Translations under genes and position numbers: made by a program
Assembly: GCA_963836205.1 (NCBI GenBank)
Contig: CAWIIV010000007.1
Location: 96,001 to 160,000 of the forward strand
Reading direction: 5' to 3'
DNA: 64,000 bases
Source: an uncultured Acidimicrobiia bacterium
GTDB lineage: Bacteria > Actinomycetota > Acidimicrobiia > Acidimicrobiales > AC-14
Notes under the pieces: model-generated
What the model saw: the letters and a program-made list of their open reading frames with translations, nothing else
Databases searched by the model: none
What the model was told of the DNA's origin: nothing
Shown: piece after piece, positions 18,833 to 27,261 of the stretch
How the letters are laid out: each line of letters begins with the position of its first letter
Numbering within the stretch: position 1 is the stretch's first letter

Positions 18833-20530
18833 TCATCTCGGCCGTACTGGCGTTTGTCGAGGGTCAACGGCTGCGGACCCCTTGGCGGCGGCAGACAGGC
18901 GCTGTGCGAGGTACTGGACCGGCTCTCGTTGATCGGGTGGGAGATGCTCGCCGCCGGTGGTCTCGGCGATGACGAACACGCGATTCCGGACCCGTCCCCT
19001 CGTCAGGGCGGTGTAGCCGGACTCGGCACCGAGGTTCTCGCCCCAGACCAGGGCGACGTCGCAGGTGGCGCCCTGGGCCTTGTGGACGGTGAGGGCGTAG
19101 CCGTGGCTGAGGTTGCCGGCGGCCAGGTAGGCCTCGGGTAGCTCTACCTCCCCGTTGTCGAGGGTGACGATGGGGGCCTTGTCGCCGACGCCCGCGACGG
19201 TGCCGGTGTCGCCATTGACGACGCCGAGGCGCTTGATGTTTCTGGTGCACACGACCCGGTCGCCGACGGCGAACTCGACGTGGCCCACCTGGGCCACGAC
19301 GGGGCCGAGCGAGCCTTCGGCCTCCATACGCTGACGGGCCCGGGCGTTGAGTTCGGCGACGGTGTCGCGGGTGGGGCCGAGCATGAGCACGTCCTTGCCC
19401 GCCTTGGTCGCGGCAGACCAATCCTCGACCATGGCGTCGGCCAAGGCGTCGGCGTTGGTGACCACGACCATGCCGCCCAGGCGGCGAAGACGCTCGACCG
19501 CCCGCCGCACGTGGCCGTCCCGCAGGTCGGCCACCACTGCCCGCTCGCCGGGGTGCTGCTGCCGTCGGTTGCCGGTGAGCTGGGTCGTCCCCAGGCGGGA
19601 GGCGAGGGCCTCAAACAGGCCCCCTGCCTCGATGGCCGGCAGTTGCTTGGGGTCGCCGACGAGCACCAGCTTGGCCTCGGCGTGGGCGCAGGCGTGGACC
19701 AGGCGGGCCAGCTTGCGGGTCCCCACCATCGCCGCTTCGTCGATGACCACGATCGATCTTCGGTCCAGCGACTCGTTCCCCGCTTTGAGGTCGATGAGGA
19801 GGCGGTCGATGGTGCGGCTGGTGATTCCCGAGCCCGCTTGCAGGCCCCGGGCGGCCCGGGCGGCGAGGGCGCAGCCCAATACCCGGGAGCCGCCCGCCTG
19901 CCATGCGGCACGGGCCGCGTCGAGGGCGAAGGTCTTGCCCGAGCCGGGAGCCCCGACCACCACGTCGATCTGGTCGCCGCTGGTGGCAATCCGCCGGACC
20001 ACCGCCACCTGCTCGTAGGACAGCGACGGCCGTGCACTCAGGGCCTCGTCCACGCGCTCGTCATCGGCGACACCGAACCCACTGGCCCGACCGCCGACGG
20101 CGATTGCGACCACCCGTTCCTCCAGGGCCAGCATCTTGGTCGTCGTCCACCGCCCTTCGGCGACTTCGACGACGAGGGGACTGGCCAGGAACGCCTGCGC
20201 ACGCTCCCCGATCTCGGCCAGTTCGGCGCCGTCGGATGCGGCGGCGGCCACCACCCACACCGCCTTGGCCGCATCGAAGGTGGCCTCGTCCAGGGTGATG
20301 CGACCGGCAAGGGCCTCGTCGATGGGCAGAGGGGCGAAGGCGCGACCGGACGAGCGGGGGACAGACGCCGGGTCGAAGCCGAGCTGTTCCGCCTCCTCTC
20401 GCCATCCGATGCGCAGGTCCAACTCGGAGACTGAACGGTCCTTGGCCTGGCGGGTGCGAGGGTGGCGACCTCGGCCGCCCTGGGCCCGGACGTGCCCTTC
20501 TTGCGCATGTCGATGGCCGCTCGGCGCCGA
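18833..20530 (-). pseudogene. Truncated MobF/TrwC relaxase-helicase (RecD-like helicase part only)
   Basis: GAPGSGKT, DEAAM, GDPKQL, YALTVHKAQGAT, YTALTRGR; upstream RRRAAID..AAEVATLA/TRQAK resembles the end of the TrwC domain, frameshift near 20455; HUH relaxase N-terminus absent. Confidence 0.8.
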
Positions 20531-21649
20531 CAGCTTGGAGGGGTCGATCGCCTACCGTCCGGTCGTTACCGCGTCCGGCTGACCGACCCGGCAACCGGAG
20601 CGAGGGTCAGCGCGGGCACGTACACGAACAAGGCTGACGCGGAGAAGGCGTTCGCCTCGGCGGTGACGGCCCAGGACCGGGGCACCTGGGTTGCTCCCCG
20701 GACCACCCTCACCCTCGCTGACTACTCGGGACAGTGGCTGGAGTCGAGGCTGACGAGCAAGGGATCGAGGCTGCGGCCTCGGGTCCGGGAACTATGCGAG
20801 GGCCAGCTCCGGCTCCACATCCTCCCGACCCTCGGACGGGCGCCACTGGCAAAGCTGCGTCCCACGACGGTCCGGTCCTGGTACACGGCCCTGGTCGACC
20901 ACGGGCCGGGCGCCATCACCGCGGCCAAGTGCTACCGGCTCCTGCGGGCGATCCTGAACACCGCCGTCGAGGACGGGCTGCTGGCCGTCAATCCCTGTAC
21001 CATTCGCGGGGCCGGCGCCGAACGGTCGCCGGAGCGCATCATCCCCACGGTCGGCCAAGTCGTCGAGCTCGCCGACACGGTCGACCCCAGGTATCGGGCA
21101 CTCGTGCTCCTCGCCGCGTTCGGGGGACTGCGGCGGGGCGAACTGTTCGGGCTGCGGCGCCGTCACGTCGATCTGACGCGGGGCGTGGTGACCATTGAGG
21201 TGCAGCGCCAGCAGCTGGCCCACGGCGAGCAGATCGTCGGACCGCCCAAGTCGGAGGCCGGCCGGCGCACCGTCGCATTGCCGCCGCAGGCGATCGTCGC
21301 CCCACAGTCACACCTCGACCAGTGGACAGGTCCGGCGGCCGACGATTGGGTCTTCACCGGCGCCAAGGGCGGTCCGCTGCGTGACGCCGTCTGGCAGCAC
21401 CAGTGGGACGTCGCCCGTCGAAGCGCCGGTCTCCCGAACCTCCACTTTCACGACCTCCGCCACGTCTCGGCCACGCTCACAGCGGCCACCGGCGCCGGTG
21501 TGAAGGAGATCATGCATCGCCTCGGGCACTCGTCGGCCCAGGCCGCCCTCCGCTACCAGCACGCCACGCCGGAGCGGGACCGGGCCATCGCCGAGGCCAT
21601 CTCCCGGCTAATAGAAGCGGCTGCCACCACCGATCCAAACCCATCATGA
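20513..21649 (+). CDS. Tyrosine recombinase / phage-type integrase
   Basis: GGLRRGELFGL (R), PPKS (K), HDLRH, RLGHS, RYQH catalytic set; N-terminal arm-binding 'RLPSGRYRVR'; ATG at 20513. Confidence 0.93.
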   Translation: MAARRRQLGGVDRLPSGRYRVRLTDPATGARVSAGTYTNKADAEKAFASAVTAQDRGTWVAPRTTLTLADYSGQWLESRLTSKGSRLRPRVRELCEGQLRLHILPTLGRAPLAKLRPTTVRSWYTALVDHGPGAITAAKCYRLLRAILNTAVEDGLLAVNPCTIRGAGAERSPERIIPTVGQVVELADTVDPRYRALVLLAAFGGLRRGELFGLRRRHVDLTRGVVTIEVQRQQLAHGEQIVGPPKSEAGRRTVALPPQAIVAPQSHLDQWTGPAADDWVFTGAKGGPLRDAVWQHQWDVARRSAGLPNLHFHDLRHVSATLTAATGAGVKEIMHRLGHSSAQAALRYQHATPERDRAIAEAISRLIEAAATTDPNPS

Positions 21650-21679: not shown

Positions 21680-23371
21680 TCATTCGTCAGGGGGCGGTCC
21701 GTAACGCACGCCTCGCCCGCCTCGCGCGTCACCAATCTTCGTGACGAGGCCGCGGGATCGCAGATCGGCGAGCAGGTTTCGGGCTCGGTAAACGTCGATG
21801 TCGAACATTCGCTGAACGGTTCGATTGGTCACATAGCCGTACTCTCGAATGTGGTCGAGGACCTTGTCGTCAGATCCATCGAGTTGCCGACGATGGTATG
21901 TCAAGGCTCGGGCCAGTCCCGCGACGGCCTCTGGGCGCAGGCGGTAGGTGGGGACAGGGTGGTGCGCCGTCCGCCGCGTCGGTTCAGCCACCCGCTCGTC
22001 GGACATTCGCTGCAGGATTCGCTGGGCCTCTGCAGGAGACCGCTGGATGGCTGCGGCGAGGATCAGTGCATCGATGGTTCGCCGCCGCCTGAGCATCGAT
22101 AGAGCGAGTAGCACGTCGACGTCTCGGCCAAGAGCATCGGGGAGGTCGGCCACGTACCGCACGAAAGGCTTGTTGCCCGTGCCGCCCTCCAAGACGGCCT
22201 GGACCAATACGTCCTCCGCTCGGAACGAGGGGGGTTCCTTCCCGCTCCGAAGCATCTCCCGATAGGCCCGATCAACCCCCTGTCCGGTCCGTTCGGCTAG
22301 CTGCAGGAGAGCAATGGTCTCGGTCAGCAGCCTGTTTCGGGGTGTGGACGGGTAGGTGAGGATGTTCTCGGGAGTCACGCCAGCTACGAACCCGCCAGGG
22401 CTCGAGATCGTCAGCTGGTCAGCGGTGTGCTCGATGTCGACGGTGCCGTGGGTGTCGTACGAGCGGTGGATCAGAGCGTTCACGACCAGCTCCCGAACGG
22501 CGTCGATGGGATAGTCGGTGAGTGAAAGCTGTACCCCTCCCGGAAGACTCAGCGGCTCACTCTCGGTACGTCGTTCGACCGCGTCGATGAGCAGCTCGAT
22601 CGCAGCGAGCATCGGCTCCCTGCCTCGGATTCGACTCGTTGCCTCTGCCCCCGACGTCGGTCGGTACTGGTATGAGTACCCGTATTCAGGGAAGCGTTCC
22701 GCGAGTATTTCGGTAGGAGCGAGGAGAATTGCTCCTGCTCTTGTCACTCGGCCATCCACTGCCAATCTGAGGTCGGCCAGCAGCCGCTCCGTGTCGATTC
22801 CGGCAAGCTCGCGGCGACCGGCGCGCCGAAGCAGCTGCCGGAGCCGTTCAATCTCAAGCGGGGCGAGTTGTGCCGGCCGCACGTCAGCTTCCTCCGCCGA
22901 CCAGTCGATCAGACCGCGGGCCGCAAGGACCTCCCGCTGCTGATCAGGCGTGAACGGAAGGCACTCATGCCCGAGTCGGCGTGTCGCGAGCCCGGCTGCA
23001 TTCGAACAGGTGCCGACGCCTTGGGGCACCAACACGACCACAAGCCGGCGACCGTGCTCGATGCGCTCGGCGACGAAGCACGTCAGGCTCGGGCGGGTGC
23101 GGTCGAAGATGCCCTTCCGGATGATGTCGACGCTGAGCCCCGGTGGTACGTCCTGGAAGGCCTCTGAGCCACCCCGGTCATCGATCACCCCGAGCACGAT
23201 GTCGCCGCCCCGGGCGTTCGCGAAGCACACCGCTGCGTCGGCGAGCATCCGAAGCGTGCCCTTCAGGTCGCGGTCGGCCTGCTTGAACTCAAGCGTGTCC
23301 CCCTCAAGTTCTCGCGCCCTCAGACCCATGGCCACGCTCGCTAGAGCAGCTTCGACCGAGCTCGGAACCAT
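21680..23371 (-). CDS. AlbA_2 (Schlafen-like) domain + HATPase_c_4-like ATP-binding domain + C-terminal HTH protein
   Basis: ELEGDTLEFK and FANARGGDIVLGV (AlbA_2); RELVVNALIHRSY, SPGG, PRN, GQGVDR; wHTH-like C-terminus. Confidence 0.85.
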   Translation of the reverse strand: MVPSSVEAALASVAMGLRARELEGDTLEFKQADRDLKGTLRMLADAAVCFANARGGDIVLGVIDDRGGSEAFQDVPPGLSVDIIRKGIFDRTRPSLTCFVAERIEHGRRLVVVLVPQGVGTCSNAAGLATRRLGHECLPFTPDQQREVLAARGLIDWSAEEADVRPAQLAPLEIERLRQLLRRAGRRELAGIDTERLLADLRLAVDGRVTRAGAILLAPTEILAERFPEYGYSYQYRPTSGAEATSRIRGREPMLAAIELLIDAVERRTESEPLSLPGGVQLSLTDYPIDAVRELVVNALIHRSYDTHGTVDIEHTADQLTISSPGGFVAGVTPENILTYPSTPRNRLLTETIALLQLAERTGQGVDRAYREMLRSGKEPPSFRAEDVLVQAVLEGGTGNKPFVRYVADLPDALGRDVDVLLALSMLRRRRTIDALILAAAIQRSPAEAQRILQRMSDERVAEPTRRTAHHPVPTYRLRPEAVAGLARALTYHRRQLDGSDDKVLDHIREYGYVTNRTVQRMFDIDVYRARNLLADLRSRGLVTKIGDARGGRGVRYGPPPDE

Positions 23372-23421: not shown

Positions 23422-23445
23422 CCGCCAGTTGTAGGAGCGGTGACC

Positions 23446-25333
23446 TAGGAAGCTTGACCTCCATGTTCTGTCGTCGGTGAGTCAAGTTCTGAGACCGATT
23501 CCCTCGGACCGAGTTGGGTCAGGCCGCGGGACTGAGGGTGAAGCCGGACTGCTTGGCTATCCGGTCGAGCTCGCGGTCGAGGTTGGCGATGGCGCGTCGG
23601 AGCTTGCCGTCGGGGTCGCCCCTGGGGTTGGTGGCCAGGTCGGCCATGGCGGTGGCGGTGAACCGGGCATGGGCGCGGTGCAGCACGACGGCGGCGTTGA
23701 GGCCGAAGTCGGTGACGGTGTAGCGGTGGGTGTGGGGGATCCGCTCGATGAGCCCGTGGAGGCGGAGCCGGCGCAGGTGATAGGTCATGCGGCCCGGGGT
23801 CATGGTCTCGGCGGGGACGCCGAGCAGGGGTGCGAGCAAGCCTCGCAGGTCGCGGTTGGCGAAACCGGTGGGCAGCAGGTGGCAGACGACGAGCGCGCCG
23901 AACAGGGCCTGGGTGACGGGGTGGTCGAAGCGCAGGGCGGGGACGCGCTGGCCCTCGACGTGGACGGGTAGGCAGACGCGGTTGTAGGTGTCGGCTCCGA
24001 GGATGGGGTCGCTGCTGGTTCGTTGCACCTGGAGGAGGCGCCGGTTGGCGGGGAAGCCGACCTGCCGCAGGGCGGGCAGGTTGGTCAGCCGCTTGCCGAT
24101 CCCGAAGTCGCGGGTGTCGTTGACGGTCGTCTCCGTGCGAAGGGCGATCTCCTTCTTGAAGTACTGCTTGATCCGGGAGTGCTTGTAGTCGACGTGGACC
24201 GACGGGATGACCCCCTCGGTGAGAACTCTGGTCCGGAACCGGAATCGCTTCAGCGTCGGCTTGGGGATCCGTCGCCCGAAGGTGAGCGACACCTGGTCGG
24301 GCCGGCCGGCGTCGAGGTTGGCCCGGATGACATCCTCGAAGAACACCCGCCCCGCCACGGGCCGGTCGAGAACCTGGGTGAGGGAGAACTCGGCTTGCAG
24401 GACCGAGATGTCGTAGCGGTAACCGGCAGCCCGGTCCTCGGGGGTGAAGGGGTGCGGGAGCCGGGCCAACCACTTGCGGACGAAGGCGTCGATCTCGTCG
24501 GGCCCCAGCCGGTCGCAGATCGCCTGCAGGGCGGCCGGGTCCTCACAGGCACCGAACACGTTGTCCAGCCGTTCAAAGCCGAGCCCGGCCTTGGCCGCTT
24601 GCTGCTGGGCCCAGTGGTGGCCGTTGATGCACACCTTGGCCGTGTAGGGAAAGTAGGTGCAGAACTTGACGAAGAACGGGCCGAAGTCGGCGTCGAAGCC
24701 GTAGAAGTAGAAGTGGTTCGGCATGGCGGTGGCGTTCACGATCCACGGGTAGGCCTTGCCCGTCATGGGGTTGAGCCGCTTCTCGGTCCGATAGACCCGG
24801 GTCTTCTCCTGGGCCCGGCCGACGAACAGGACCTGCTCGCTCACCCCGTCGTGGCCGGCCAGGTACTCATGGGCGACGTCGTCCTTGCGTTGGCCCTTGG
24901 TGAAGTGGACCAGGTCGAGGCCGTGGTCGCGGATGAACCGGTGGATCCCCTCGACGAAGGCGGTGGTCATCGGGTCCATCAGCGCAGAGGAGGCGAAGGG
25001 CATCTGTCGGTGGCCCCTGAAGAAGCCGACCACACCACCCGGGAACATCAGCTTGGGCTGGTAGAGGTTCAGGTACATGCGGTCGATGCAGTCGATCTCG
25101 AAGATGACGTGGTCGTCGAGCACGTCGGCCATCGTGGCGGGTACGGTCATCGTCGGGCTCCGGTCGACTCAGGCCCTCAACGGCCAACAACCGCTTCAGG
25201 CGGTACAAGCGACACCTTCGGGCGTCGCATCTAGGCTCGACCGGAGCCTACGAACACCTGCCGCCGACGCCAACCGCACCGACCTGATCGCGCCACCACA
25301 CCGCCTCGTCGGGCTGGGGCGAAGCCCCGTTAG
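23446..25333 (-). mobile_element. Putative non-DDE insertion element (~1.9 kb), boundaries inferred
   Basis: Single 543-aa gene; minus-strand 5' end CTAACGGGGCTTCGCCCC hairpin; 3' end CTTGAC..GTCAAG stem then CTTCCTAG; TAG (plus strand) at both ends; codon usage differs from neighbours. Confidence 0.55.
23519..25150 (-). CDS. Uncharacterised transposase-like protein with C-terminal winged helix
   Basis: 543 aa; IDRMYLN, QAEFS, IKQYFKKEIALRTETTVN (K-x-Y-x-K...R-x-E, reminiscent of Rep_trans initiators); wHTH MTYHLRRLRLHGLIERIPHTHRY. Confidence 0.8.
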   Translation of the reverse strand: MTVPATMADVLDDHVIFEIDCIDRMYLNLYQPKLMFPGGVVGFFRGHRQMPFASSALMDPMTTAFVEGIHRFIRDHGLDLVHFTKGQRKDDVAHEYLAGHDGVSEQVLFVGRAQEKTRVYRTEKRLNPMTGKAYPWIVNATAMPNHFYFYGFDADFGPFFVKFCTYFPYTAKVCINGHHWAQQQAAKAGLGFERLDNVFGACEDPAALQAICDRLGPDEIDAFVRKWLARLPHPFTPEDRAAGYRYDISVLQAEFSLTQVLDRPVAGRVFFEDVIRANLDAGRPDQVSLTFGRRIPKPTLKRFRFRTRVLTEGVIPSVHVDYKHSRIKQYFKKEIALRTETTVNDTRDFGIGKRLTNLPALRQVGFPANRRLLQVQRTSSDPILGADTYNRVCLPVHVEGQRVPALRFDHPVTQALFGALVVCHLLPTGFANRDLRGLLAPLLGVPAETMTPGRMTYHLRRLRLHGLIERIPHTHRYTVTDFGLNAAVVLHRAHARFTATAMADLATNPRGDPDGKLRRAIANLDRELDRIAKQSGFTLSPAA

Positions 25334-25351: not shown

Positions 25352-25528
25352 CTCGTGCTGGTCGCCACCGGAGCCGGGGTGAAAGAGATCTTGCACCGTC
25401 TCGGGCACTCCTCCGCCCAGGCCGCCCTCCGCTACCAGCACGACTCCCCGGAGCGAGACCGAGCCATCGCCGAGGCCATCTCCCGCCTCATCGAGCCGGC
25501 CAACACCGCCAAATCGGACCCGCCGTAG
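25352..25528 (+). pseudogene. 3' remnant of a second, closely related tyrosine integrase
   Basis: Translates LVLVATGAGVKEILHRLGHSSAQAALRYQHDSPERDRAIAEAISRLIE..*, nearly identical to the C-terminus of 20513-21649. Confidence 0.88.
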
Positions 25529-25848: not shown

Positions 25849-27261
25849 GGTTCTTCGCGAAACCTGGTGATCGCGCCGCCTGAATGGCTTCCCCGTCATC
25901 ATCGGCGATCCCGGCCTCAGCTCGCCAGCGCTGGCGGGTGACCGGAGCAGAACAGAAGCACCCGGGCTCGGTAGTTGGCTCTGGAGGCGAACCCGTACGC
26001 CATTCGCTCCAGCACCTCGATGCGGGTGTTCACCCCCTCCGAGGCTCCGTTGGTGGCCCGGTCGGTCTTGTGGAAGTTGAGCGCCTCGACCCCCCAGCGG
26101 CAGAACGTGGTGATGGCCGATCCCAGGTTGATTCCCGCGGCCAGGTAGGCGTCGGTGAACCAGTCCAGCGCTTGCTCGGCGTCGGCGTCGTTCTCGGCGC
26201 AGAACACGACGTGAAATCTCTGCACCAGGCCCCACACCACGCCGAGCTCGGGATGGGCGTCGAAGAGTGCGCCCAGGCGGGCCATCTCCTCGCCGCTGAG
26301 TCGGTCGAGCCGCTTCATCAGCAGGAACCGGGCCCGGAACACCTCGGCGTCATGCGGCTGGCCGAGGGGGCTGCGCTGGGCGTCCCGGCGGGCGCTGACC
26401 AGCACCTTGGCGAAGCCGCGCACGACATGGAACCGATCCGCCACGTGGCGGGCGTGGGGCAGGTGCTTGCGCACCGCAACCCGGTAGCACTCGGCCATGT
26501 CGGTCACCACCACCGACACGCCCCCTCGCCAAGATGGGCTCTGAGCTGCGAGGAAGCCCCCCAGCACATCCGCCGAGCGGCCCTTGAGCACGGCGATGAC
26601 GGCGCCCCGGTCGCCGTCGGTGAGGATGGTGGAGAACTGGCCCCGGCCCTTGCGCATCGACTTCTCGTCGACCAGCAGCACCCGGCAGGGACGACGCCGT
26701 CGAGCCCGGGCCAGCAGCTCGCCCTCGGCCAGCACCAGGCGCATCACCCGGTGCCAGGACAGTCCGTGGCGGCGGGCCACGGCGGCAACGGTCATGTCCT
26801 TGGCGTCGGCCACCACCGCCCGGGCCAGTCGCCTGGTCATGCGGTCGACGAAGAACGGATGGCTCTCCGTCGTCGTCGTGCGACAGTTCTTGCACCGGAA
26901 CCGGCGGCGGTGCCAGACCAGGGTGACGGGCCGTCCCGACACGGCCAGGTCGGCGATGCGGACCTTGCGGGTGGCATGCACCCGGGCCGTCTTGTGCCCG
27001 CAGGCCGAGCAGCGGATCACGTTGGCGATGGCCACCACCGCCACCACCAGGGACTCGGGCAGGTCCTCCACCACCTCCAGTACACGCACCGCGCGCAGGT
27101 GCAGGCGGATCGTCATAGCGTCGAGGGCAGCCACCAGGCCTCCTTGTTCGATCAGCTTCGTCACTGACCAGTTCAGGAGGCCCGGTGGCCCAGATGGTGG
27201 ATGCCGGCTACGGCACCGGCGCCCGTTCACGAGAGGCCGTCACCAGCTTTCGCGAAGAGGG
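25849..27261 (-). mobile_element. ISL3-family insertion sequence, 1413 bp
   Basis: Imperfect 22-bp terminal IRs (GGTTCTTCGCGAAACCTGGTGA 25849-25870; TCACCAGCTTTCGCGAAGAGGG 27240-27261); 8-bp TSD TCATAACC at 25841-25848 and 27262-27269. Confidence 0.92.
25917..27134 (-). CDS. ISL3-family transposase
   Basis: Zn finger CSACG...RRFRCKNC; VDE, TDM, ADRFHV, TNGASEGVNTRI, R.AYGF motifs; AAGGAGG before GTG 27134. Confidence 0.92.
   Translation of the reverse strand: MAALDAMTIRLHLRAVRVLEVVEDLPESLVVAVVAIANVIRCSACGHKTARVHATRKVRIADLAVSGRPVTLVWHRRRFRCKNCRTTTTESHPFFVDRMTRRLARAVVADAKDMTVAAVARRHGLSWHRVMRLVLAEGELLARARRRRPCRVLLVDEKSMRKGRGQFSTILTDGDRGAVIAVLKGRSADVLGGFLAAQSPSWRGGVSVVVTDMAECYRVAVRKHLPHARHVADRFHVVRGFAKVLVSARRDAQRSPLGQPHDAEVFRARFLLMKRLDRLSGEEMARLGALFDAHPELGVVWGLVQRFHVVFCAENDADAEQALDWFTDAYLAAGINLGSAITTFCRWGVEALNFHKTDRATNGASEGVNTRIEVLERMAYGFASRANYRARVLLFCSGHPPALAS

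Follow-up and report, generated by a model that had tools for sequence, protein, structure and literature searches.

Identification of the element and its boundaries

The stretch of DNA analyzed here (the window) comprises 64,000 nucleotides from an uncultured Acidimicrobiia bacterium (GenBank assembly GCA_963836205.1, contig CAWIIV010000007.1, positions 96,001 to 160,000 of the forward strand). At positions 23446 to 25333 it contains a lone gene between two copies of TAG, which raises the question of whether this unit is a mobile element and, if so, what kind of enzyme moves it. A first-pass annotation, made from the letters alone, had proposed a new class of insertion element with a Rep_trans-like protein and hairpin ends. 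The analysis indicates with near certainty that the element at 23446-25330 is a genuine mobile element. As to the enzyme, a probability of roughly 0.6 was assigned to the reading that the element is autonomous and is moved by a non-HUH tyrosine nuclease, in which a TBP-like, Rep_trans-like nuclease domain is joined to a MarR/PadR winged helix. The features of the element are as follows, with 5′ and 3′ (left and right) given in gene orientation.

23446..25330, minus strand: the element proper, 1885 bp missing from the empty site (from the copies on contigs C23 and C20 and the contigs of metagenome runs X5 and X6)
25331..25333, minus strand: CTA (plus strand: TAG) immediately before the 5′ end, the copy in the CTA...CTA repeat that derives from the target
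25316..25328, minus strand: 5′ subterminal hairpin GGGGC-TTC-GCCCC, 2 nt inside the junction (42 sequences compared)
25305..25315, minus strand: conserved box AGCCCGACGAG after the 5′ hairpin, nearly invariant in alignment A3
25151..25304, minus strand: remaining 5′ untranslated region, presumably containing the promoter; relatives differ in its length, their start codons lying 135-230 nt from the end
23519..25150, minus strand: sole conserved gene, a putative transposase of 543 amino acids
24005..25117, minus strand: residues 12-382, two-module TBP-like fold in the predicted structure, putative nuclease domain
24161..24163, minus strand: codon of Y330, the proposed catalytic tyrosine of K328-x-Y330-x-K332, invariant in alignments A2 and A8
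23612..23998, minus strand: residues 385-513, MarR/PadR-type winged helix-turn-helix
23445..23487, minus strand: 3′ end module of 43 nt, consisting of ACTTGACTCA, a variable/hairpin segment and CAAG-N5-CTAG; most of the 55 relatives aligned agree with it in length and boxes
23453..23486, minus strand: outer stem CTTGAC / GTCAAG of the 3′ module, enclosing a GC hairpin in most relatives
23445..23448, minus strand: terminal CTA of the element (23446-23448) plus the target G (23445, C on the plus strand), reading CTAG

The sequence features on which the first-pass annotation had relied were all found in place: the lone open reading frame at 23519..25150, the motifs KQYFK...LRTE (K328-Q-Y330-F-K332 and L-R338-T-E340), the 5′ end CTAAC-GGGGC-TTC-GCCCC with its hairpin at 25316-25328, CTTGAC (23453-23458) and GTCAAG (23481-23486) with CTTCCTAG next, and TAG at both 23446-23448 and 25331-25333.

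Further copies and empty sites were sought in the genome and in metagenomes, and both were obtained. A search of the element's own assembly (25 contigs, 4.05 Mb) showed that 23445-25333 is a discrete repeat. The second full copy, on contig C23, matched these 1889 bp with 1 mismatch and had unrelated flanks. The third copy (C20:67620-68521; locus L003, genome G000) consisted of the 3′ part only (~900 bp); it was 5′-truncated and frameshifted, and stopped abruptly within the gene. The 3′ boundary was identical in all three copies, and the 5′ boundary in both full copies. Solo ends or miniature derivatives were not found in this genome, which contained just 2 left and 3 right ends. The flank beside the 3′ end of the C20 copy (TCACCGC) resembles that of the window copy over ~7 nt.

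The empty site was found on one contig each in the metagenome runs X5 and X6, with flanks ~99% identical to those of the window. In these contigs 23448 is joined without a gap to sequence that corresponds, with slight divergence, to 25334 onward; the insertion thus adds a net 1885 bp to CTAG. The uninterrupted site reads GAC-CTAG-TCA, which agrees with the TGAC-CTA-GTCA junction that had been predicted for the excised locus. For the C23 copy, the flanks had no counterpart among the 41 genomes of the family searched. The repeat unit begins at 23445, the C of CTAG, and not at 23446 as first proposed. The phasing 23446..25330 presumes cleavage after CTA, and a TA or CTA duplication would move the limits by 1-3 bp.

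Architecture of the ends

The boundaries of relatives were set by multi-copy comparison in seven genomes, and the same plan was seen throughout. The 5′ junction reads flank, CTA (A/G) CG - GGGC - loop - GCCC - AGCCCGACGAG. The five pairs of the 5′ stem were paired in 210/210 cells across 42 distinct 5′ ends, with a loop that varies, and in 8 sequences one pair had changed from GC to AT on both sides. For the inner 3′ hairpin of relatives, 73.6% of 314 cells were paired, compared with 62.4% when shuffled and 20-49% when slid, and changes on both sides occurred at all 6 pairs. The window copy does not have the inner 3′ GC hairpin of most relatives; of the 3′ structure it retains just the outer stem, CTTGAC/GTCAAG. 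It is conservation and covariation across relatives that support the hairpins, not the folding energy of the window's ends.

Terminal inverted repeats had been said to be missing, and indeed, among the 25 longest inverted repeat pairs (136 in all), none links both ends. A weak terminal inverted repeat shared by the window's ends (CTA + GCTT, with a 1-nt shift) was rejected, since the family as a whole does not keep it.

What is kept at the ends, in members of several phyla, is (C/T/A)TA. Across phyla, YTA is followed by a GC hairpin at the 5′ end, and a hairpin is followed by CTA at the 3′ end. Among 48 unique left junctions the flank-side triplet was CTA in 44 and ATA in 4. A subfamily with ~41% protein identity (38-43%) showed CTA at the 3′ end in 3/3 genomes and TTA at the 5′ end in 2/3. 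In five copies of genome G461 the left junction reads flank-CTAG-NN, TTA-GCGAGC..., and the right one ...GAGCTA, G. In G462 (two copies), the left end shows TTA, G ahead of an 8-bp GC hairpin, and the right end shows ...TTCTA, G. The two copies in G463 have a CTAG-type 3′ end and an indistinct left boundary with no YTA. The left and right triplets are thus unequal in two subfamilies (ATA/TTA and TTA/CTA), and TA alone is always present on both sides, indicating that a 3-bp duplication alone does not account for the CTA repeat in the main group.

Short tandem duplications bounded by CTA(G) were observed at the 3′ ends of six loci (L047, L052, L061, L082, L089 and L096) and in the 5′ flank of one (L155). 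They comprised a terminal 8-19-nt unit present 2-3 times, the entire 43-nt module, or flank plus CTA, and resemble traces left by mis-termination or by renewed cleavage at CTA sites.

Target site preference

The flanks of independent insertions were compared. An A at position -4 relative to CTA was found in 36/48 unique left flanks of genome loci and in 61/78 unique flanks from an independent metagenome scan. It was still present in 46/63 flanks once 15 flanks that are ends of another insertion sequence (IS) had been removed (background A 0.205, p = 5e-19). On the right, the base after CTA was G in 57/65 and A in 8/65, the search pattern having admitted just these two bases. Right-side positions further out look random, and position +5, the mirror of -4, was T in 11/65. 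The target is A-N3-CTA^G, read on one strand, and is asymmetric despite its palindromic CTAG core. For a dimeric DDE enzyme with a symmetric double-strand attack, a symmetric target logo is expected.

In G060, an Isosphaeraceae metagenome-assembled genome (MAG), a 1514-bp IS701-like element occurs 12 times (loci L114-L125); its inverted repeat is TTCTACAGCCGCAG, and CTAG is duplicated at its flanks. In 6/12 copies (e.g. L116, L041) our element lies precisely between CTA and G of the right-hand duplicate, which is again insertion at CTA^G. Similar IS ends (..GGCTG[C/T]AGTA) account for 15/78 metagenome left flanks. This nesting at IS701-like ends could be due to repeated targeting, or to joint movement from the left CTA^G.

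In G461, a genome with 32 matches, the second subfamily (~41% protein identity) is co-resident with the first (loci L315-L319). In 5/5 of these copies a CTAG precedes the TTA insertion point at a distance of two bases, which suggests a longer target for this subfamily, CTAG-NN-TTA^G.

Domain structure and conserved residues of the protein

The protein matches no established transposase family in Pfam, NCBIfam or PHROGs, which gave nothing beyond weak helix-turn-helix signals; 27 diverse relatives scanned in the family libraries likewise gave nothing else. Sequence search against the PDB returned MarR-like matches only (E 0.2-0.5), and the ESM Atlas returned just 'hypothetical protein' clusters with scores of at most 0.82. 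AlphaFold2 was run on an alignment of 27 sequences, for the whole protein and for residues 1-385 apart, with a pLDDT of 85.4 for the former and a pLDDT of 90.5 and pTM of 0.88 for the latter. The C-terminal winged helix-turn-helix noted in the first pass was recovered as a MarR/PadR-type winged helix at residues 385-513. In a Foldseek search with the N-terminal domain, 4cij_B ranked second (E 6.9e-4, probability 0.98). In the viral structure library BFVD, TBP-fold proteins were matched, including a phycodnavirus TBP-fold protein that was also matched by a Rep-Arvir query (PMC13107129).

The Rep_trans catalytic domain is described as a TBP-like sheet made of two five-strand modules, with the catalytic Tyr191 on strand 10 between R189 and K193, and with the metal ligands D46 on strand 1, D142 on strand 6 and E214 on strand 11 (PMC4797284). 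This numbering was checked on RepC and five small Bacillota plasmid initiators (~30% identity), giving SxD46, RxD142, RxY191xK and RxE214. In the predicted structure of our protein, K328-x-Y330-x-K332 lies on strand 325-332 and R338-x-E340 on the next strand, 336-343. With the module boundary placed at about residue 250, as judged from half-domain matches, D23 (in CIDR) falls on the first strand of module 1, E254 on the first strand of module 2, KxYxK on the fourth and RxE on the fifth strand of module 2.

Conservation was examined in alignment A8, which contains 12 sequences with identity down to 23%. Residues D23, R24, E115, Y148, Y150, D153, G157, P168, N176, N197, Q252, E254, K328, Y330, K332, R338, E340, R371, G429, T480 and G483 were invariant in 12/12, and the most distant members read VKVYDK...LRVET. 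The predicted model would make D23, E254 and E340 the equivalents of D46, D142 and E214, on the same strands and in the same order as in RepD, and Y330 the likely nucleophile of a tyrosine catalysis. For motif I (RxD) the candidates are E254, D196 or D239. Motif IV, (W/L)xRxE, has a counterpart in L337-R338-x-E340 on strand 336-343, comparable to LWRVE in RepC. The Rep_trans likeness proposed in the first pass is thus supported by the fold (Foldseek probability 0.98 to 4cij) and by KxYxK and RxE on consecutive strands, but not by sequence-based membership of PF02486. This Pfam family occurred in 0/401 sampled Actinomycetota genomes, and a RepC alignment found no relative in IMG/VR.

Proposed mechanism and alternative explanations

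Mobility, the exact boundaries, the empty site, the target preference, the conserved ends, the fold and the invariant motif are taken as shown. As the simplest model compatible with them, we rather favor the following enzymology for the putative tyrosine nuclease, in which we infer tyrosine catalysis, a single-strand polarity and a circular intermediate. The protein would recognize the conserved subterminal hairpins and boxes of both ends, and Y330 would cleave one strand directly 3′ of (C/T/A)TA at either end, with the help of a metal that conserved carboxylates would coordinate (candidates D23, E254 and E340). The cut at the 5′ junction would fall between the target CTA and the first base of the element, and that at the 3′ junction after the element's own terminal CTA, with the enzyme staying on the 5′ phosphate, as Rep_trans initiators do. 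Strand exchange would reseal the donor as CTAG and join the 3′ end to the 5′ end, and the product would be a single-stranded circle with the junction ...CTA-ACGG.... Reversal at A-N3-CTA^G would put the strand into the target, and the host would synthesize the complement. Rolling-circle copy-out is suggested by the fold, with excision as the alternative. Exactly the predicted junction is carried by the 2509-bp metagenome contig L191: at ~355-430 the gene 3′ end and the 3′ module are linked through one CTA to the 5′ hairpin, after which come the 5′ untranslated region and the gene start. A head-to-tail junction with a single CTA thus exists, but L191 does not distinguish a circle from a tandem.

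Several observations weigh against this account. The L191 junction could be a tandem insertion instead of a circle. The structural scores are middling (TM 0.27/0.36 to 4cij), and the equivalence of D23/E254/E340 to D46/D142/E214 is drawn from strand order, not from a residue-level superposition. At the level of sequence, PF02486 and PF25227 were unmatched in hmmscan at E<=10 with the protein and 27 relatives, and both profiles gave nothing against the whole genome at E<=10. Alignment with hhalign to two Rep_trans alignments, one RepC-like and one more diverse, gave a probability of 0.1-0.2%; its best segments, non-significant, paired D23 with D46 and GFERLD196 with GFTRLD142. Among the Rep_trans motifs listed in a review (PMC5714925), motif II (T/SxY/ExG) is not clearly matched by anything in alignments A2 and A8, and the E of motif III (YxKxxE) is unconserved although K328-x-Y330-x-K332 is invariant.

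The ends and flanks add further points of this kind. When folded as single-stranded DNA, the window's two ends were no better than shuffles (z 0.31 to -0.80). The inner 3′ hairpin may be dispensable, because the window copy is without it and yet identical to the C23 copy; the 3′ hairpin could also be a transcription terminator. Hairpin mismatches did not favor the coding strand, with G.T and A.C numbering 9 and 22, respectively. Insertion at CTA^G without duplication is indistinguishable by sequence from a 2-bp TA duplication in CTAG/TTAG. No orientation bias of the IS200/IS605 kind was seen: with 1.5-kb flanks, 32 loci had a positive and 37 a negative GC skew, and with ~40 kb of flanking DNA the skew was positive for 16/30 copies, with 14/30 co-oriented with the neighboring genes. 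These orientation proxies are weak in these genomes, where skew and gene direction are uncorrelated (r = -0.08).

Some of these observations would be accommodated if the same protein worked by double-strand cut-and-paste or copy-paste, making a staggered cut in CTAG with a TA or CTA duplication in an IS5/IS630-like manner; the carboxylates would then be catalytic, and the tyrosine would not be the nucleophile. In keeping with this, TA (or CTA) flanks every copy, the empty site is the palindrome CTAG, neither skew nor gene direction reveals an orientation bias, and D23, E115, D153, E254 and E340 are invariant acidic residues. We nevertheless consider it unlikely, given a TBP-like and not RNase H-like fold without a DDE family match, no terminal inverted repeats, conserved subterminal hairpins that are unlike at the two ends, left and right triplets that are unequal in two subfamilies, and a target whose asymmetry (A at -4 in 61/78 flanks, no mirror T at +5) is not that of a symmetric attack.

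The fold and the nuclease/winged-helix architecture also match replication initiators (Rep_trans, Rep-Arvir), and the unit might be a tiny rolling-circle replicon, plasmid or satellite, whose Rep-like protein initiates at the end hairpin and whose chromosomal copies are integrated forms. The head-to-tail junction in the 2509-bp metagenome contig would fit such a replicon. On the other hand, every copy examined on a long contig belongs to a chromosome or a megaplasmid, a single genome having as many as 32 matches at different sites, and the unit has no second gene for integration. Moreover, in 77/78 metagenome contigs with enough upstream sequence to be judged, what borders the 5′ end is other DNA instead of the 3′ end of the element itself, and the exact 5′ end 29-mer was present in 0 viral contigs; a replicon is accordingly a doubtful explanation. 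Least plausible to us, and very improbable, is that the protein is a DNA-binding regulator or accessory factor and that the unit is moved in trans by another enzyme, e.g. the transposase of a co-resident CTAG-targeting IS. Its winged helix is regulator-like, one distant homolog is annotated as an ArsR family regulator, and the element often sits at the end of a CTAG-duplicating IS701-like element (6/12 copies in G060, 15/78 metagenome flanks). Yet the ends co-vary with the gene across phyla and are unlike the inverted repeats of that IS, the element's own genome has copies without such a neighbor, and the nuclease-type motif is invariant. The reading as an autonomous element moved by its own tyrosine nuclease is the one compared with known systems below.

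Comparison with known systems

The proteins grouped as Rep_trans (PF02486) include RepC/RepD of pT181-type plasmids, RepSTK1, CTX-phi RstA and MOB_T relaxases. Our protein shares with them the two-module TBP-like fold, a tyrosine within a strand in the context basic-x-Y-x-K with R-x-E on the strand that comes after, an Asp conserved on the first strand, and a separate DNA-binding domain after the nuclease domain; the DNA substrate is in both cases a GC hairpin beside the cut, the cut of the element being proposed. It differs from them in having no detectable sequence homology, in a domain ~150 residues larger with long insertions, in that motif II was not found, and in serving a multi-copy chromosomal insertion element. 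The RepC cleavage site is in the hairpin loop, whereas the cut proposed for the element lies outside the hairpin. In the available text of PMC5714925, PMC4797284 and PMC13107129, the roles named for this fold are plasmid replication, phage replication and conjugative transfer, and rolling-circle transposition is treated for HUH enzymes only.

Rep-Arvir (DUF7845, PF25227) comprises initiators of archaeal viruses and plasmids that are kin to Rep_trans by structure only; they combine a TBP-fold nuclease with a MarR-like winged helix and have an adjacent DNA hairpin as cis element (PMC13107129). Our protein has the same order of nuclease and winged helix, and also a hairpin adjacent. In contrast, PF25227 is unmatched, the motif is KxYxK and not KHYYM, and the family is bacterial and serves an insertion element, not a viral or plasmid replicon.

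Members of IS200/IS605 encode an HUH Y1 transposase and move by single-strand 'peel and paste'. They are small, have no terminal inverted repeats, carry unlike subterminal hairpins at their ends, are cut a short fixed distance outside these, and insert 3′ of a short sequence. The element resembles them in its small size, in its subterminal hairpins that are unlike at the two ends, in its lack of terminal inverted repeats, in proposed cuts a short fixed distance outside the hairpins and in its insertion 3′ of a short specific sequence; an asymmetric target is likewise common to both. Unlike them, its protein has no HUH motif or Y1_Tnp match and would carry the tyrosine on a strand, not on a helix; no orientation bias was seen for the element, and both of its proposed cleavage sites are preceded by the same YTA.

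A general model of rolling-circle transposition by HUH Y2 enzymes has been given for IS91 and Helitrons (PMC5714925). With IS91/ISCR and Helitrons the element shares a replication-initiator-like tyrosine nuclease (putative in the element) and the apparent lack of a classical duplication. It also resembles IS91/Helitron in having a hairpin ~10 nt before a CTAG/CTAA (CTRR-like) 3′ end, and in terminal units and flanks that are occasionally duplicated. It differs in a non-homologous nuclease fold, in matching no HUH family and in having no helicase domain. The likeness to Helitron-type elements drawn in the first pass is borne out for the hairpin and the CTAG 3′ end, but as an analogy of form only. 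CTAG-targeting DDE elements (IS5-type, and the IS701-like element in G060) share the CTAG target and short flanking repeats with the element; they have 14-bp terminal inverted repeats and a DDE transposase, and the element has neither. Taken together, the element would work like IS200/IS605, IS91 and Helitrons yet belongs to none of them, its enzyme fold being different.

Size and distribution of the family

The abundance of relatives was measured in several collections. All 8000/8000 scored candidates from a 90%-clustered protein collection were significant, and the names attached to them were 'hypothetical' or 'helix-turn-helix domain-containing'. Among representatives of 50%-identity clusters, 10,350 were found at E<=1e-3, 5,157 at 1e-10 and 1,138 at 1e-30. 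The contigs carrying the element were mostly ~2 kb long, as is typical of a repeat that interrupts assembly. Many contigs stop precisely at a boundary of the element, and several start at its first base.

In species genomes, at least 561 stretches were confirmed out of 607 candidates. The 80 best loci were mostly from Actinomycetota, with others in Planctomycetota, Verrucomicrobiota, Chloroflexota, Acidobacteriota and Pseudomonadota MAGs, and included cultured Mycobacterium persicum and Actinoplanes subtropicus. Intact copies were present in cultured Rhodococcus and Burkholderia strains. Plasmids gave 27 records, of which 17 were from Rhodococcus, 6 from Burkholderia/Paraburkholderia/Caballeronia and the remainder from others. 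The plasmid annotations under the match were 'hypothetical' or 'uncharacterized protein', apart from one distant homolog named an ArsR family regulator, and some records were unannotated there. In one RefSeq record, annotated with PGAP, the adjoining gene was named IS110 transposase and the element's gene 'hypothetical'. Among viral contigs, the exact 5′ end 29-mer had 0 matches.

Of the three refuting conditions named in the first pass, none spoke against the idea once checked. Single-copy homologs in conserved synteny were one of them; the homologs are instead multi-copy and patchy, with 2 full and 1 partial copies in the element's own genome and 6-32 matches in five MAGs. A match was present in 11/41 related genomes, a tally that takes in three genomes flagged unpublished (G008, G015 and G017), but in 1/7 other genomes of the genus. 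The five MAGs, assembled from long reads, had 32, 14, 7, 7 and 6 matches. Copies within a genome were 99.6-100% identical over 1.77-1.9 kb, with the exception of one diverged beta-proteobacterial copy (~96%). In a beta-proteobacterial MAG (L064), two copies in the same orientation lie ~100 bp apart. In terms of mechanism, the family is probably a new class of bacterial transposable element, one that is very large and has gone unannotated.

Genomic neighborhood

The element sits in a stretch of the window that is rich in mobile DNA, with the following neighbors.

18833..20422: helicase/relaxase-like open reading frame
20462..21649, plus strand: tyrosine integrase, upstream of the element
21680..23371: AlbA_2/HATPase_c_4 protein, upstream of the element
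25355..25528, plus strand: C-terminal 57-amino-acid fragment of a second tyrosine integrase, paralogous to the intact integrase at 20462-21649, 4 kb upstream
25917..27230, minus strand: ISL3-family transposase gene with the domains Zn_ribbon_ISL3, HTH_Tnp_ISL3 and DDE_Tnp_ISL3

The ISL3 transposase, the integrases and the helicase/relaxase-like frame suggest that the region is a mobile-element-rich island. The integrase fragment begins ~10 bp from the 5′ end of the element. The empty-site contigs carry the same truncated arrangement, indicating that the truncation was not caused by the element. Antisense to the element's gene, a 403-amino-acid open frame was observed at 24023-25234 (plus strand), along with other long opposite-strand frames; these were treated as an artefact of high G+C content.

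Implications

No Rep_trans or TBP-fold transposase, nor this element, was described in the published full texts searched, a search that covered neither subscription journals nor ISfinder. We give slightly better than even odds that the element is the first recognized member of an abundant prokaryotic transposon superfamily whose transposase is a TBP-fold, Rep_trans-like tyrosine endonuclease. If so, a transposase class would be placed beside the DDE, DEDD, HUH, serine, tyrosine-recombinase and Cas1 enzymes. A rolling-circle initiator would then have been independently recruited for transposition, in parallel to IS91/Helitron and IS200/IS605, and a second, non-HUH lineage of such initiators would have taken this path. 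The short asymmetric target and the single small protein make the element attractive for mechanistic work and possibly as a tool, and the mechanism is directly testable because intact copies exist in cultured Rhodococcus and Burkholderia. Since the copies break assemblies, a sizeable share of the mobile DNA of soil bacteria is invisible to annotation.

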